Positions 3,353-15,082 of a stretch of DNA of 35,112 nt are shown here, one piece after another. The DNA lies in the IMG/VR virus record IMGVR_UViG_3300047403_000032, positions 1-35,112 of that record, one strand, 5' to 3'. The DNA comes from a virus. Its lineage: Duplodnaviria; Caudoviricetes. Every line of letters starts with the position of its first letter. The first letter of the stretch is position 1. The notes under the pieces were generated by a model. It searched no databases. It saw only the letters and a list, made by a program, of their open reading frames with translations, and was not told where the DNA came from. The position numbers and the translations under genes were made by a program.

Positions 3353-3554
3353 CATTACATTGTCTCCCGAGTGGCAAGCCGAGCAGATGGACCGCCTTCT
3401 CGGATTTGAGATTTTGACCAGAGCCTTGACGGCCCGCTACCACCCCATTCCTCCAGAGCTTCTGGCGGACAAGGTGGGGGCCAACAAGGGACTTACCAAT
3501 TCCATCATCGTCAAAATCCAGCGCAACCTGAATGAAAAGCAACGACCAGATTGA
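3333..3554 (+). CDS. hypothetical protein
   Basis: Fills the gap before the portal and overlaps both neighbours; start uncertain (3333 or 3387). Confidence 0.5.
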   Translation: MRRSESDITLSPEWQAEQMDRLLGFEILTRALTARYHPIPPELLADKVGANKGLTNSIIVKIQRNLNEKQRPD

Positions 3555-5607
3555 GTCCCTGACATTTGTGCAGGGAAAGCCTGATGTGCCCGCGCTGAAG
3601 AACGCCTACGACCGCACCATCGGGGACCTCGACTGGTATTTGCAGAGCACCCGCGATTCGTTCGACTATCGCCGCAACATCTGGCCGGGAAAGTCGAAGG
3701 ACCTTCGCAAGCATGGCGCTGACGCCTTCCCGTTTGAAGGGGCTTCGGATACGGAGGTGGGGTTGATTGACGAGCGCATCAACACCTACGTCTCGTTATG
3801 CATTGAGGCGATGGAACGGGCCAACATCCGTGCCTATCCGGTGGAGATTGGAGATATGTCGCGTGCCCGCGTCACGTCCGCCTTCCTGAAGTGGATGAAG
3901 GCGTCCTACATCAAGGACTTCAGGCGTCAGATGGAGCTGGGCTGCAACTACCTGTTTGAGCGCGGCATCATGGTGACATACGTTGGCTGGCGCAAGGAGG
4001 ACCGCACCTTCCTTCAGAAGCTCGACTTGCAGCAGATTGCCCAGATTAGTCCAGACTTGGCTCGTCTGATTCAGGACGGGAAGGTGGACGAGCAGATTGC
4101 CGAACTCCTGAAGCAGCAGTTTAAGGGCGTTACGGATGCCCGTGCGAAGAAGGCCATCAAGCAGCTCCGAAAGGAGGGCATGGCCGAACTACCTGTGGTT
4201 AGGCAATCGGTGAACGCGCCGAACGTATGTTCACTGGCTCCGGATGGCGACGTATTCTTCCCTGCCTACACCACAGATTATCAAAAGGCTCCCTATTGCT
4301 TCTGGCGCGTCCTGATGACGGCTCAGGAGTTGAAGAACAAGGTGAGCACGGAGGGTTGGGATGAGGAGTGGGTGGATGAAATCATCAGCCGTTACGCCAC
4401 GTCCATCAACCTTTCCGACCCACGCACCAACACCGAGACGGCCCGCATGCCGTCCGAACAGACGGAGGAGCTGTTTGAGATAGTGTATGCCTATCAGCGG
4501 CTCATTTCACCCGAGGACAACTCCGAGGGCATCTACTGCACAGTGTTCCATCCGACGTTTTACGGCACCACGGATGATCCGCGCTACGCCAAGCATGAGC
4601 TTTTGAACGGGTATGATGACTATCCGTTCGTTGTCACCAAGCTGAGCGAGGACAACAAGCGCCTGTACGAGCTGGCCACGGTGCCAGAGCAGCTTCGCGG
4701 GTTGCAGTGGGGAGTGAAGGCCGAGCGTGATAGCCGCACCGACCGCAATAGCATGGCCACGCTGCCTCCCATCATGCACCCCGTTGGGCTTCCGCCCACG
4801 GATTGGGGTCCAGGTGCCCGTGTCCCCTATCGCCGCCCCGGCGAGATTCAGTTTGGCCCTGTTCCACCGTACAACCCCGGCTCAGTGGAGCTGGAACGGA
4901 CGATGATGGATCAGGCCGACCGCATCATGGGATTGGATCATAACAACCCCATGTCGCGTATTCGTCAGCAGCACTACGTTGACAAGTTCTTGGGCCACGT
5001 TCGTGACGTGCTGAAGCTGTCTTTCAAGTGCTATCAGCGTTTTGGCCCTGAGCAGGTGTTCTTCCGTGTCACGGGAACGTCCGATCCCATCCGCTACGAC
5101 CGTGGAGACCCGAATGAGGACTTCGACATCAGCATCAGCTTTGATGTCCTCAACACCGATCCTGAAACCCTAGAAGCCCAGCTTCAGCGGTTTGTCAGCC
5201 TCGTCCAGCTCGACCGCAACGGCAGGATGAACATGGACATGCTGCTTGAGGCCTTGGCTGTTTCAGTGAATCCTGCATTGGCTGATGCTGTTTTGCAGCC
5301 CGCTGGTGAGGCGCAGCAGCAGATTGTGAAGCAGGTGACGGACGACCTGTCGAAGATTTACGCTGGTATCGAGGTGGGTGCGCGGCCCAACGGTGCTCAG
5401 ATTGCATTGCAGGTGATGCAACAGTATGCCCAACAGCCTGACGTGATGCAGCGCTTGCAGCAGGACGAGGCCTTCAAGGCGCGCATTGAGAAGTACGCCC
5501 AGCAGTATCAGTTCCAGATGCAACAGGCCCAGAACGCCCAGATTGGGCGTCTAGGCACTGCTCCTGCCCAAATGGGGCAGGTGAACACTCAGGCCATGAT
5601 GACCTGA
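3532..5607 (+). CDS. portal protein
   Basis: 691 aa downstream of terL; features typical of P22/podovirus-like portals (DAFPFEGASD, GIMVTYVGW, YPFVV, Q-rich C-terminal region). Confidence 0.88.
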   Translation: MKSNDQIESLTFVQGKPDVPALKNAYDRTIGDLDWYLQSTRDSFDYRRNIWPGKSKDLRKHGADAFPFEGASDTEVGLIDERINTYVSLCIEAMERANIRAYPVEIGDMSRARVTSAFLKWMKASYIKDFRRQMELGCNYLFERGIMVTYVGWRKEDRTFLQKLDLQQIAQISPDLARLIQDGKVDEQIAELLKQQFKGVTDARAKKAIKQLRKEGMAELPVVRQSVNAPNVCSLAPDGDVFFPAYTTDYQKAPYCFWRVLMTAQELKNKVSTEGWDEEWVDEIISRYATSINLSDPRTNTETARMPSEQTEELFEIVYAYQRLISPEDNSEGIYCTVFHPTFYGTTDDPRYAKHELLNGYDDYPFVVTKLSEDNKRLYELATVPEQLRGLQWGVKAERDSRTDRNSMATLPPIMHPVGLPPTDWGPGARVPYRRPGEIQFGPVPPYNPGSVELERTMMDQADRIMGLDHNNPMSRIRQQHYVDKFLGHVRDVLKLSFKCYQRFGPEQVFFRVTGTSDPIRYDRGDPNEDFDISISFDVLNTDPETLEAQLQRFVSLVQLDRNGRMNMDMLLEALAVSVNPALADAVLQPAGEAQQQIVKQVTDDLSKIYAGIEVGARPNGAQIALQVMQQYAQQPDVMQRLQQDEAFKARIEKYAQQYQFQMQQAQNAQIGRLGTAPAQMGQVNTQAMMT

Positions 5608-5829
5608 CTAGCGTCGTAGGTCACTAAACCGCCCCTTCAGCTCCTTGTGCTTCCCAACGGACAGCACCTCGTCCAAGGCGAGGATGCGTCCGCTGAGCTG
5701 TTGGAGGCGGTCGGTGCCCACGTCGTGCATCTGACTGATGCACCATTCGCGGCTTTCCGCGATGTAGTTGAGGAAAGCGAGGAAGTCTTCGCTGTTATGC
5801 AGACGCTCTAGTGCCTTTTCTTCGATCAT
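5608..5829 (-). CDS. small helical protein resembling the usual post-portal protein (Bbp19-like), here on the opposite strand
   Basis: 73 aa (LHNSEDFLAFLNYIAESREWCISQMH...LQQLSGRILALDEVL); its stop abuts the portal stop. Family resemblance is from recall only. Confidence 0.7.
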   Translation of the reverse strand: MIEEKALERLHNSEDFLAFLNYIAESREWCISQMHDVGTDRLQQLSGRILALDEVLSVGKHKELKGRFSDLRR

Positions 5830-5833
5830 AGGA

Positions 5834-5973
5834 TGGAGGGGTCATAAGCAGGACTCCAACCTGCATTTCCGCCTCACCCCCGATTGGCCTTTCCACGGCA
5901 TGGCAGCCGTGATTCCGGTGGGCCGCTAACGTCTTAGCTGGCGGCGTGCTCTGCTTTGCACCATTATGATCCC
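5834..5973 (-). ncRNA. tRNA-like RNA with extended acceptor stem and expanded anticodon arm
   Basis: Minus strand: GGGAUCAUAA/UUAUGACCCC stem then U-CCA; U8G9; D-arm GUGC-AAAGCAGA-GCAC; CCGCC/GGCGG stem around a 66-nt insert; variable AAAU; T-arm GCAGG-UUGGAGU-CCUGC. Confidence 0.8.
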
Positions 5974-5978
5974 ATGTA

Positions 5979-6010
5979 ATTATCGCATAGTATTGGGATG
6001 GAACGGTCAA
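5979..6010 (-). promoter_or_regulatory. putative promoter for the tRNA-like RNA and small gene
   Basis: TG-C-GATAAT extended -10 ends 5 nt before the first G of the RNA; TTGACC lies 20 nt further upstream (non-optimal spacing). Confidence 0.5.
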
Positions 6011-6025
6011 GCACCAAACTGAATA

Positions 6026-6034
6026 TGCTAGGAT
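6026..6034 (+). promoter_or_regulatory. putative extended -10 promoter for the scaffold/capsid operon
   Basis: TGCTAGGAT about 50 nt upstream of the scaffold ATG; the motif recurs elsewhere in the window. Confidence 0.55.
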
Positions 6035-6083
6035 GCGCCTAACGCAGACGCCGATGGCGAAAAGACGGCGGAATACATCCCTT

Positions 6084-7151
6084 ATGTCAGAAGACGCTAC
6101 GTCCAGCGCGGCAGACGTTAAACCAGCCGTGGAAAACAAGTCGATGTCGGACAAGGACTTCCTGTCCAACCGCATCGCCAAGCTATCCGCCAAGGCCCAA
6201 CCGGCTGAGGCCAAGAAGCCTGAATCGGCTCCAGCAGGAGAAGCTCCCAAGGCGGAACCTCCCTCACAGGAGGGCGAATCCCAACCGAAGGAAGCCGATC
6301 CCAAGGAGGTTCTTTCAAAAGACGTTGGTGAACTAACCGATGAAGAGATTGCCGAGCTTGCCCAACGCGGCAAGAGCGGACTGTTGAAGCGTATTGCTGA
6401 ACTTACGGCCAAGCGAAAGCTGGCCGAGGAGAAGGCATCTGCCCTTGAGGCTGCGATTCAACAGGCTCAACAGCAACTCCCTGAGGCGAAGATTGAGAAT
6501 AATCCTTATTCCTCAATCGCCACCGAAGAGGAGCTGGCAAAGGAGAAGGCCGAGGTGGATTCCTTCGTGGAATTTGCCGAGGACGTGCTCTTCAGGTCAG
6601 AGGACCTTGGTGCTGATGATGTCGCCTACGAAAGCGATGGAAAGCAGTATTCCAAGGCAGCGGTTAGGGAAATGCTCCGAAATGCCCGCAGACGCCAGAC
6701 GAAGTTCATTCCAGCTCAATTCAAGGAGCTGCAAGAACGTCAGAAGCGTTCGCTCATGGAGGAGAATTTCAAGAAGCTGGCCAAGCAGGAGCTCTCTTGG
6801 ATGGACGGTGAGGACAATGACACCCGTAAGCGTTTTGAGGCGATGGTGAATGACCCTCGTCTCAAGAAGATGAAGGAGTCAGTGCCCGAAATCGCGCCTC
6901 AGATTGAGTATCTGGTAGCGCATGCGGCTAATTCCATCTACGGGCGCAAGCTCATCAGCATGGACGACAAGCCAAAGGCTCCCGCCATCAATCCTCCATC
7001 CAGCCCCAACGCCGTCGCTGCTGCTCCTGAACGCACGGAATCCCGTGCCGAAAAGAGCATCAAGGACATTGAAAGCCGATTTAAGCAAACAGGAAGCTCT
7101 AGCGACTTCATCGCCCTCCGTGCAGCTCAAATCTCCAAACGTAAAACCTAA
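6084..7151 (+). CDS. capsid scaffolding protein
   Basis: Acidic and proline-rich N-terminus, coiled coil KRIAELTAKRKLAEEK, directly before the MCP; ATG at 6084. Confidence 0.8.
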   Translation: MSEDATSSAADVKPAVENKSMSDKDFLSNRIAKLSAKAQPAEAKKPESAPAGEAPKAEPPSQEGESQPKEADPKEVLSKDVGELTDEEIAELAQRGKSGLLKRIAELTAKRKLAEEKASALEAAIQQAQQQLPEAKIENNPYSSIATEEELAKEKAEVDSFVEFAEDVLFRSEDLGADDVAYESDGKQYSKAAVREMLRNARRRQTKFIPAQFKELQERQKRSLMEENFKKLAKQELSWMDGEDNDTRKRFEAMVNDPRLKKMKESVPEIAPQIEYLVAHAANSIYGRKLISMDDKPKAPAINPPSSPNAVAAAPERTESRAEKSIKDIESRFKQTGSSSDFIALRAAQISKRKT

Positions 7152-7157
7152 TTAGTT

Positions 7158-8138
7158 ATGTCGTTCTCAAATACCTACGATACTACCTCCCCCGGTAGCG
7201 CGGCCCTCAATCGTGAGGACCTTCAGGACGCTATGTCCATGCTGGCTCCGTCTGAGACCCCCGTTCTCAGCTCGGCTGATAAGTTCAAGTGCTCCGCCAC
7301 CTTCGTGGAGTGGGGCGTTGACAAGCTCTCCACCCCGTCGTCCACGGCGGTGAGCGAGGGTGCTGATGTCACCGACTTCGATGACAAGTTTGAGTCGGTG
7401 GCGCGTCTGGGCAATTATGTCCAGAAGCTCCGTCGTTCCTATCGCGTGTCCGACCTCCAGCAGGCTGTTTCCTCGGTTGGTCCGCAGGACATCGCCCGCG
7501 CTGAGATGAAGGCCGTGAAGGAACTGAAGCGTGACGTGGAGAAGACCCTCCTCGGCACTCAGGACCGTGCGGCTGAGAATGGTGGCGGCACCGCCTACAC
7601 CATGCGCGGCATTGGCGATTGGATTGACTCGGCTGGCCCGGCGGATGTCCCCTCGGACTACCGCACGCCCGCTGGCTCCATCCATGCGTCTGGCACCTTC
7701 AGCGAGACCGTTCTGAATAACCTCATCACGTCGATCTATCGCGTGTCGGGTGTGACGAACAGCCTCACGCTGGTGGCGGACACCGCCCTTCGTCGGGTCA
7801 TCAGCGACTTTGCTCGCGCTGACTCCTCGACTGGCCCGATCCGCCAGTTCACCGCCCCGCAGGGCTCCAGCCTCATCAAGCTGTCGGTTGGGCAGTATCA
7901 GTCGGATCACGGCATTGTCACCATCGTTGACATGAACCCCGACTGCGCTCCTGACACCACGAACAAGGACACGGGTTATCTCGTCAATCCTGAGTATTAC
8001 GCGGTTGGCGAGCTCATCCCGCTCGGCAGCACCCGCCTCCCGAACCTCGGTGGTGGTGAGCGTGGCTATGTTGACTGGACCGGCACCCTCAAGGTGGCGC
8101 ATCCGGGCGCGCATGGCAAGATCACGACCCTGACCTGA
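7158..8138 (+). CDS. major capsid protein (DUF5309/SU10-like HK97 fold)
   Basis: NREDL...PSETP...EW.VD.L...EGAD...RLGNYVQ...ELKRDVE motifs; strong C/G-ending codon bias; 326 aa. Confidence 0.9.
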   Translation: MSFSNTYDTTSPGSAALNREDLQDAMSMLAPSETPVLSSADKFKCSATFVEWGVDKLSTPSSTAVSEGADVTDFDDKFESVARLGNYVQKLRRSYRVSDLQQAVSSVGPQDIARAEMKAVKELKRDVEKTLLGTQDRAAENGGGTAYTMRGIGDWIDSAGPADVPSDYRTPAGSIHASGTFSETVLNNLITSIYRVSGVTNSLTLVADTALRRVISDFARADSSTGPIRQFTAPQGSSLIKLSVGQYQSDHGIVTIVDMNPDCAPDTTNKDTGYLVNPEYYAVGELIPLGSTRLPNLGGGERGYVDWTGTLKVAHPGAHGKITTLT

Positions 8139-14785: not shown

Positions 14786-14923
14786 ATGAGCAAATCAGGC
14801 GAACGCTACAAAACGAAGGCGCAGATGAAGCGTCACGAAATGTCCGAGTCCAAGAAGGACCGCATGATGGAGTATGGCTCCATGAAGACCAAGAATCATG
14901 GCACTAAGCGAAAGATGTGCTAA
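14786..14923 (+). CDS. small basic protein
   Basis: 45 aa MSKSGERYKTKAQMKRHEMSESKKDRMMEYG...; absent from the track. Confidence 0.6.
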   Translation: MSKSGERYKTKAQMKRHEMSESKKDRMMEYGSMKTKNHGTKRKMC

Positions 14924-14925
14924 CC

Positions 14926-15066
14926 ATGCCCCTCACCAAGAAAGGTAAGAAGATTATGGCCGCGATGCAGGAGGAGTACGGCAAGGAGCGCGGTCAGCGT
15001 GTGTTTTACGCCTCTGCCAACAAGGGCAAAATCAAGGGCGTAGATTTCAAGCGCAAGCGGCGTTAA
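14926..15066 (+). CDS. small basic protein
   Basis: 46 aa MPLTKKGKKIMAAMQEEYGKERGQRVFYASANKGKIKGV..., a phage peptide type I recognise as widespread; absent from the track. Confidence 0.7.
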   Translation: MPLTKKGKKIMAAMQEEYGKERGQRVFYASANKGKIKGVDFKRKRR

Positions 15067-15082
15067 ATGGTAGGATAGGCGT

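Follow-up and report, generated by a model that had tools for sequence, protein, structure and literature searches.

Relation to described tRNA-like RNAs

In tmRNA, a tRNA-like domain carries a large insert at the anticodon position. The pRNA of phage phi29 is a packaging RNA, and phage antisense RNAs of the C4/CI type have complementary targets in the same genome. The Lak megaphages possess intron-bearing tRNA genes, which sit among about 30 tRNAs, have an assigned isotype, and exist in intron-less versions as well (PMC6784885, accessible sections). YrlA Y RNA, known from bacteria and phages, mimics a tRNA without decoding and combines D and T arms with a second domain; its acceptor stem is closed by a loop, it contains a GNCGAAN0-1G motif, and its gene lies beside Ro60 (PMC4201824, accessible sections). 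Engineered tRNA scaffolds keep the acceptor, D, and T arms of a tRNA and carry a cargo that replaces the anticodon stem-loop (PMC3753655, accessible sections). Finally, the T4 species 1 and 2 RNAs (rnaC, 139 nt, and rnaD, 119 nt; AF158101) are small stable phage RNAs.

The stretch of viral DNA analysed here (the window; 35,112 nucleotides) is a 35-kb phage genome, 95% complete, that encodes a terminase, a portal, and an SU10-type capsid. Between its portal and scaffold genes, on the minus strand and thus antisense to the head operon, lies a gene for a tRNA-shaped RNA (5834-5973; family core 5842-5969, corresponding to tRNA positions 2-71). It belongs to a real, selected RNA family of 39 distinct cores in phage contigs, a kind of phage tRNA mimic that is apparently undescribed. 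The RNA resembles the engineered scaffold, the Lak tRNA introns, YrlA, tmRNA, and T4 rnaC and rnaD, and departs from each of them in a defining feature. As in decoding tRNAs, D and T arms with the residues for tertiary contacts are present, but the 7-nt anticodon loop with U33 is replaced by an insert of 45-67 nt, with G33 in 39/39 cores, so that the RNA cannot decode.

Unlike tmRNA, the family has a D stem (100% paired), its insert is only 45-67 nt long, position 3:70 is C:G or G:C in 39/39 cores instead of G3:U70, and no ARAGORN or Rfam call was obtained. Unlike in YrlA, the RNA ends form the acceptor, and the GNCGAAN0-1G motif occurs in only 9/39 cores, where, judged by eye, it overlaps the anticodon stem and the variable loop. 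A TROVE (Ro60/Rsr) gene was found in 0/5 carrier genomes, the control being positive in 2/14. The original prediction that this is not a tmRNA, a YrlA-type Y RNA, or a group I intron was thus borne out by the D stem, the absence of G3:U70, the free ends, and the lack of Rfam and ARAGORN matches. The latter had also been foreseen: ARAGORN called no tRNA and no tmRNA in the window, and Rfam searches with the whole window and with three alleles alone gave nothing near the gathering score. The T4 RNAs are of similar size and rnaC has a tRNA-type T arm too; they differ from the family by a standard T loop and by their location in a tRNA cluster. Comparison of the family model R1 with rnaC and rnaD gave no match at E values up to 10, and four T4 tRNAs were matched. 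The engineered scaffold is artificial, of which the family represents a natural counterpart with its own covarying cargo (PMC3753655, accessible sections). An antisense RNA of the C4/CI type was considered and rejected, as the longest exact matches (10-14 nt) fell within the shuffled range (10-15 nt) and no Rfam match was found. In five own genomes, no antisense targets above chance were retrieved, in a search that would miss short split sites.

What the family shares with the Lak genes is a tRNA body encoded by a phage and interrupted by an insert that is long, conserved, and of unknown handling (PMC6784885, accessible sections). Unlike those genes, the family has no anticodon loop that can be rebuilt, no insert-less allele was found among the loci examined, and the scanned carriers lack tRNA genes. 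Indeed, removal of the insert in the manner of a Lak-type, group I, or bulge-helix-bulge intron restores no canonical loop with a single anticodon. It is therefore very unlikely that this is a tRNA gene with an unusual intron, spliced to a working tRNA, although the body is intact, the insert sits exactly at the anticodon loop, and phage tRNA introns have been reported in Lak phages (PMC6784885, accessible sections). The G33 in 39/39 cores, the different anticodons that the last six insert bases imply between alleles, and the variable acceptor end all speak against splicing. Moreover, scans of the window and of 13 loci, among them the RNA-minus genome G005, called no insert-less tRNA, RtcB was absent from 5/5 carrier genomes, and no splice joint was seen in eight RNA runs, of which the contigs show presence only and cannot show absence.

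Structure of the RNA and of its insert

The window copy scores 126.5 bits with R1, the window being among the training sequences of this model. All cloverleaf elements claimed for 5834-5973 on the minus strand in the original prediction are present, and the minimum free energy (MFE) fold is the cloverleaf. The acceptor 5' strand (5964-5973) comprises the conserved 6 bp (5969-5964), a mismatched A1 (5970), and a window-specific GGG extension (5973-5971). It is followed by the D arm (5946-5961; loop AAAGCAGA with G18 at 5954, C19 at 5953, and A20), which is 100% paired with double changes in 2/4 pairs, and by the anticodon-position stem (5' strand 5940-5944, partner 5869-5873), which is 100% paired with double changes in 3/5 pairs. 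This stem encloses a 66-nt insert domain of allele A (5874-5939), which forms a three-way junction in place of the anticodon loop. A variable loop of 4 nt, the T arm (5848-5864; loop UUGGAGU with G56 at 5857; 100% paired, double changes in 2/5 pairs), and the acceptor 3' strand (5834-5847), with C72, a window-specific CCC, and U-CCA, complete the molecule. Within the insert, hairpin 1 (5925-5938; 5 bp) has a loop that starts with GA in 35/35 aligned sequences and double changes in 4/5 pairs. The insert stem (5876-5923) consists of two helices split by a bulged purine and encloses hairpin 2 (5893-5912) and an unpaired GG-containing segment (5884-5892). Both hairpins noted originally were thus found, but their list was incomplete, as further helices (GCCC/GGGU and CCGG/UCGG) close the three-way junction. 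A likeness of hairpin 2 to CRISPR repeat hairpins was dropped, as the Rfam searches gave no CRISPR family match.

The MFE fold of the window RNA (-55.9 kcal/mol, z -2.09) was equalled by 5/200 shuffles. Taken alone, this single-sequence folding energy is modest support; it is the comparative evidence that excludes chance. Single-sequence folding returned the cloverleaf for L007 and L119 and not for six other family sequences, so that the structure rests on covariation. In alignment A1, made of the 35 distinct family sequences in hand at that time, 95.4% of the cells pair under the proposed structure (slid controls, 34-49%), with double-sided changes in 23/41 pairs. The D, anticodon-position, and T stems are 100% paired across A1, and the insert helices covary as well. 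Since the proposed structure was derived from these same, related sequences, a separate comparison was made between the window and its nearest relative L014. Their 15 stem substitutions amount to seven double changes and one single change, without any broken pair, an outcome reproduced by random placement in 4/200,000 trials. Selection thus maintains pairing in the cloverleaf body as well as in the insert domain, and the selected L-shaped fold proposed originally is confirmed by the covariation in A1 and by the unbroken pairs between the window and L014.

The insert is 63-67 nt long in 37/39 cores and 45 nt in 2/39, the short allele (L008 and L255) lacking hairpin 2. The insert alleles A, B, and C agree in length and architecture, and the variation between them may be neutral. 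No loop-loop complementarity shared by all of them was apparent by eye in the alignment. An alternative explanation is that the body is a stability chassis only and that the insert is active as an aptamer or antitoxin-like RNA for a protein that normally does not bind tRNA. This is unlikely; it finds a basis in the conserved length and architecture across alleles, in the unconstrained acceptor end, and in a layout that equals that of engineered tRNA scaffolds (PMC3753655, accessible sections), but the insert alone resembles no Rfam family, the insert motif was seen only inside this body (18/18 contigs with the motif were already family members), and the short allele does without hairpin 2.

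The 10-bp acceptor and the encoded U-CCA, which the original prediction described for this RNA, turned out to be properties of the window copy. Its relatives keep pairs 2-7 (6 bp), the GGG/CCC extension and the U-CCA are window-specific, and CCA at 74-76 is encoded in only 3/69 instances. Pair 1:72 is unpaired in 16/35 aligned sequences and all four bases occur at discriminator position 73 across the family, which thus lacks the conserved 7-bp acceptor and discriminator of a decoding tRNA. The variable 1:72 pair and the rarely encoded CCA weaken the earlier idea of a synthetase ligand, the acceptor end appearing too variable for a synthetase substrate. In the window, the GGG/CCC and U-CCA extension may still form, given a predicted transcription start at 5973-5976. 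In the sister copies L014:1858-1993 and L015:3147-3282, a 3-bp acceptor extension is possible across a CC bulge, without terminal CCA.

The swapped elbow in phage tRNAs

The compensatory swap of the elbow pair to C19:G56, noted originally as a peculiarity of this RNA, is real but not special to it, being common in ordinary phage tRNAs. A scan with a pattern that included an encoded CCA yielded 107 loci with tRNA-like ends carrying G56. Of 70 distinct ARAGORN tRNAs with G56, 64 had GC in the D loop, either alone (59) or together with GG (5); in the others, the D loop contained GG alone (1) or neither dinucleotide (5). In contrast, of the 105 neighbouring tRNAs with C56, 76 had GG alone, 26 had both dinucleotides, 2 had GC alone, and 1 had neither. 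These counts exclude 11 tRNAs without a parsed T loop and nine with A or T at position 56. C19:G56 is thus a recurrent compensatory change in ordinary phage tRNAs, encompassing at least 14 isotypes, and no description of it in phage tRNAs was found in the literature searched. Dozens of such tRNAs were encountered (L285-L391; for example L238:1445-1530, L288, L356, L381, and L391), several in some contigs, the commonest isotypes being Leu(UAA), Arg, and Ser(UGA). The tRNA-Gly of Caulobacter phage phiCbK, a blastn match, was rejected as a swapped-elbow case because of its standard T loop.

The C19:G56 tRNAs (Arg, Leu, Ser, Gly, Glu, and others) share with the family a cloverleaf body, U8, A14, the D-loop GC, and the T-loop G56. 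For instance, tRNA-Arg(CCU) of L288 has D loop AAAGCACA, the same as several family members. Unlike the family, they have a 7-nt anticodon loop and an encoded CCA, the latter being part of the search pattern. Given this recurrence in ordinary phage tRNAs, the tRNA-shaped RNA likely descends from a swapped-elbow phage tRNA gene. R1 gave swapped-elbow phage tRNA bodies at most 46.7 bits, compared with 115-148 bits for family members, and these scores singled out no parent isotype.

Distribution, gene contexts, and mobility

The carriers are a group of freshwater bacterial viruses. A capsid search retrieved 80 loci, in which the small gene next to the RNA was inverted as in the window in 65, on the plus strand in eight, and without small-gene or scaffold match in seven. 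In 32 of the 65 inverted loci, the RNA lies between the small gene and the scaffold gene; in the other 33, only 42-61 nt are found there. These 32 carriers, found by neighbourhood and not by motif, all possess the D-loop GC and the T-loop UUGGAG (32/32). Motif scans brought the total to 50 viral contigs; 18/18 metagenome matches, some from the same assemblies, belonged to the family, and non-family loci made up 49/99 and 24/74 in two scans. Wider search patterns gave no more distant members, the strict pattern had 0 matches in 185,579 prokaryotic (bacterial and archaeal) genomes, and blastn of the RNA region against annotated phages and plasmids gave no match or short pieces only. As to the host, the nearest isolate, C75C1, has no listed host, the sole genome match was an 8-kb MAG contig, and the DnaB relatives came without organism. 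The literature searched contained no description of this RNA, nor did the readable tables of PMC10690425 hold a match; the RNA may be among the 8,495 unnamed candidates of that viral catalogue and thus have been detected automatically before.

In the window, the portal gene (3532-5607, plus strand; phrog_1216, E 1.3e-5) is separated from the RNA by a conserved phage gene coding for 73 amino acids (5608-5829, minus strand), which was missing from the original prediction. This small gene lies directly 3' of the RNA, begins 4 nt past the CCA, and is opposed to the head operon; its protein matched no Pfam, PHROG, or PADLOC family, and these searches assigned no function. On the other side, a putative scaffold gene (6033-7151, plus strand; named by position, without family match) precedes the major capsid gene (7158-8138). 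The real scaffold start is likely 6084, as many relatives align only from about residue 18. An extended -10-like motif (TG-C-TAGGAT), of which relatives have a similar version, lies at 6026-6034 and extends into the scaffold ATG called at 6033. The 73-aa gene is inverted relative to the head operon in the clade of the window and lies on the operon strand in the distant relatives L063, L064, L070, L071, L074, L075, L078, and L079. Insertions of about 560-700 nt separate the portal gene from the small gene in L017, L032, L074, L078, and L080.

The RNA was found in four gene contexts, of which two (C and D) lack a same-strand downstream gene. Context A is the arrangement of the window, namely small gene, RNA, and scaffold. 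Context B belongs to a distant relative, of which the portal is 35% identical; there, the RNA lies upstream of a 65-aa ORF and of the terminase-portal genes. The downstream genes of contexts A and B show no tblastn similarity to each other. Context C was found in a 50-kb integrase-bearing phage, which gave no protein match to the 32 window proteins tested; here, the RNA comes after a stop codon and before a terminator-like hairpin. In context D, the RNA is antisense among late genes, and a convergent stop codon comes after it; a comparable pair of divergent promoters is present, but the small gene is not. The context D copies are inserted just after the counterparts of two short basic ORFs, which in the window are located at 14788-14922 and 14927-15067, between a DUF5754 gene and a glycine-rich gene, and fall below the 60-aa cut-off.

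In a quick scaffold tree of 53 rows, RNA presence changes five times, at least four of these changes being forced by well-supported branches. On the phage tree, alleles A, B, and C do not cluster, values as low being reached by 89, 165, and 500 out of 500 shuffles, respectively. L045 and L062 have identical scaffold proteins and different insert alleles, and both T-stem variants co-occur with alleles A, B, and C. The RNA gene is thus gained, lost, and exchanged between phages and, occurring in multiple contexts, behaves as a dispensable, recombining accessory unit. It is missing from seven relatives that are 91-100% complete (G005 and G007-G012), R1 detecting it in the carriers searched.

A packaging-associated RNA had been suggested originally, and the position between portal and scaffold as well as the three-way junction would suit a packaging or virion-assembly RNA similar to phi29 pRNA. 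This role is disfavoured by the absence from the seven relatives, at odds with an RNA needed in all phages with this motor, and by the occurrence at three other kinds of locus. Furthermore, the RNA is transcribed against the head operon in the window, is present in an unrelated phage, and shows by eye no loop-loop complementarity common to its alleles, making this the most improbable of the explanations. The four contexts, two of them without a downstream gene, and the absence from seven relatives argue against obligatory cis roles as well. Being dispensable, moving between loci, and inserting at promoter start sites, the RNA could also be a selfish or neutral hitchhiker that keeps its fold only for processing and harmlessness. 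However, this is improbable, as the insert helices covary too, a single copy per genome was found in 7/7 carrier records searched with R1, and no mobility gene was noted beside the RNA.

Predicted promoter and expression

The predicted promoter of the RNA contains a -35-like element (CTTGAC; 6006-6011, minus strand). A CTTG(A/C)Y-type hexamer occurs 29-32 nt upstream of position 2 in 28/34 distinct upstream regions; elsewhere, the spacing is 35-36 nt in the clade of the window (three regions; 36 nt in the window) or 45 nt with an extra hairpin (two), or the hexamer is absent (one). This count leaves out one row at a contig end and includes two hexamer variants that were admitted once contexts C and D had been seen. 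A scan for a consensus sigma-70 promoter and terminator gave 0 sites. L039, L043, L257, and L259 have an additional hairpin of 14 nt after the promoter slot and ahead of the RNA, and hence a 5' leader that RNase P could remove; at L009:2332-2581, part of the promoter region preceding the RNA occurs as a tandem duplication. At RNA-minus loci, 19/21 distinct regions have this hexamer at a distance of 29-33 nt from an ATG of the small gene, indicating that the RNA sits where a gene that is probably leaderless would have its start site. The 73-aa gene appears leaderless where the RNA is missing.

Expression was examined in 8 of the 24 metatranscriptome runs listed for the relative L089, as assembled contigs, of which the depths cannot rank expression. 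Runs X1 and X3 have a contig that terminates at L089:1617-1619, where the 6-bp stem has its first base, in letters that we take to be sequencing adapter; the contig stops at L089:1619 and two adapter letters coincide with 1618-1619, hence the range. Both runs concern a strain that is 7% different over 720 bases and come from two 2018 river studies, maybe of one campaign. This gives only a hint, in 2/8 metatranscriptomes of one relative, that the 5' end of the RNA is at the first base of the acceptor stem. The six other runs gave no support for this end: pieces span the promoter in X2 and X12, cover the 3' part only in X11, and lie on the scaffold side only in X8, X9, and X13. The X1 and X3 contigs continue from the RNA into the small gene, and no free 3' end or CCA addition was seen in them.

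These bridging contigs would be expected if the RNA were a cis-acting 5' element that stabilises or gates the message 3' of it, be it a gene or an antisense transcript, via tRNA-type processing. Likewise, an AUG follows the acceptor stem by 5-11 nt in contexts A and B, a U-rich run precedes the AUG in relatives, and the RNA is located at the presumed start site of a gene that, in relatives without the RNA, looks leaderless (19/21 regions). Yet contexts C and D, in which a terminator-like hairpin and a convergent stop codon come next, offer no downstream gene, 33/65 loci keep the same small gene without the RNA, and the downstream genes of contexts A and B lack tblastn similarity, so that a cis-acting element is not a likely explanation.

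Proposed function

An RNA that is not needed for assembly, is not tied to one downstream gene, gave no antisense target in the five genomes searched, and keeps an L-shaped body plus a fixed-size domain at the anticodon end is best explained as a trans-acting, protein-binding tRNA mimic. With intermediate confidence, we consider it a mobile accessory phage gene for a tRNA-shaped RNA devoid of an anticodon loop, which probably works in trans through binding of a host protein that handles tRNAs, most likely as a decoy or inhibitor that counters a tRNA-targeting defence of the host. Among the roles suggested originally, the decoy is thus the favoured one, as a guess. The patchy distribution and the allele exchange are the reasons for which we infer this counter-defence role, with a host tRNA-binding protein as predicted partner; the searches made identified neither a partner nor a host or a defence system. 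A faithful decoy would be expected to copy the standard host elbow, which fits poorly with the swapped elbow seen here.

According to the mechanism proposed, a host-type promoter would start the transcript at or just before the 6-bp acceptor stem, and the 3'-processing of tRNAs by the host would set free a stable RNA, some 125-140 nt long. In two contexts, this processing may also yield a nearly leaderless mRNA of the next gene. The L-shaped body would be a chassis, as in engineered tRNA scaffolds, and the rigid domain of 63-67 nt at the anticodon end would keep the RNA off the ribosome, make it uncleavable by anticodon nucleases, and present a binding surface. The C19:G56 elbow, likely inherited from a swapped-elbow phage tRNA, may evade a host factor that reads the standard elbow. 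A more elaborate version, possible though doubtful, is a natural tRNA scaffold, of which the swapped-elbow body, shielded from an undescribed elbow-reading host nuclease, would display interchangeable folded RNA cassettes that neutralise different alleles of a tRNA-targeting defence, making it an RNA-only and modular counter-defence gene.

Defences that cut tRNAs are a major front of the conflict between phages and bacteria, and the phage answers known to us are replacement tRNAs and proteins. If the tRNA-mimic reading holds, phages would have a different answer in a small, mobile mimic that does not decode and whose cargo can be swapped. As the RNA gene is only about 125 nt long, its synthesis and testing against panels of defence systems are feasible. 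Separately testable is the C19:G56 elbow, whose occurrence across many tRNA isotypes points to an unexplained selection on the tRNA elbow. Other tRNA-like genes with a swapped T loop and with inserts or odd arms (a long variable arm, a D-loop insert, an 8-nt loop, or a duplicated segment) were encountered in L304, L320, L336, L347, L289, and L352.
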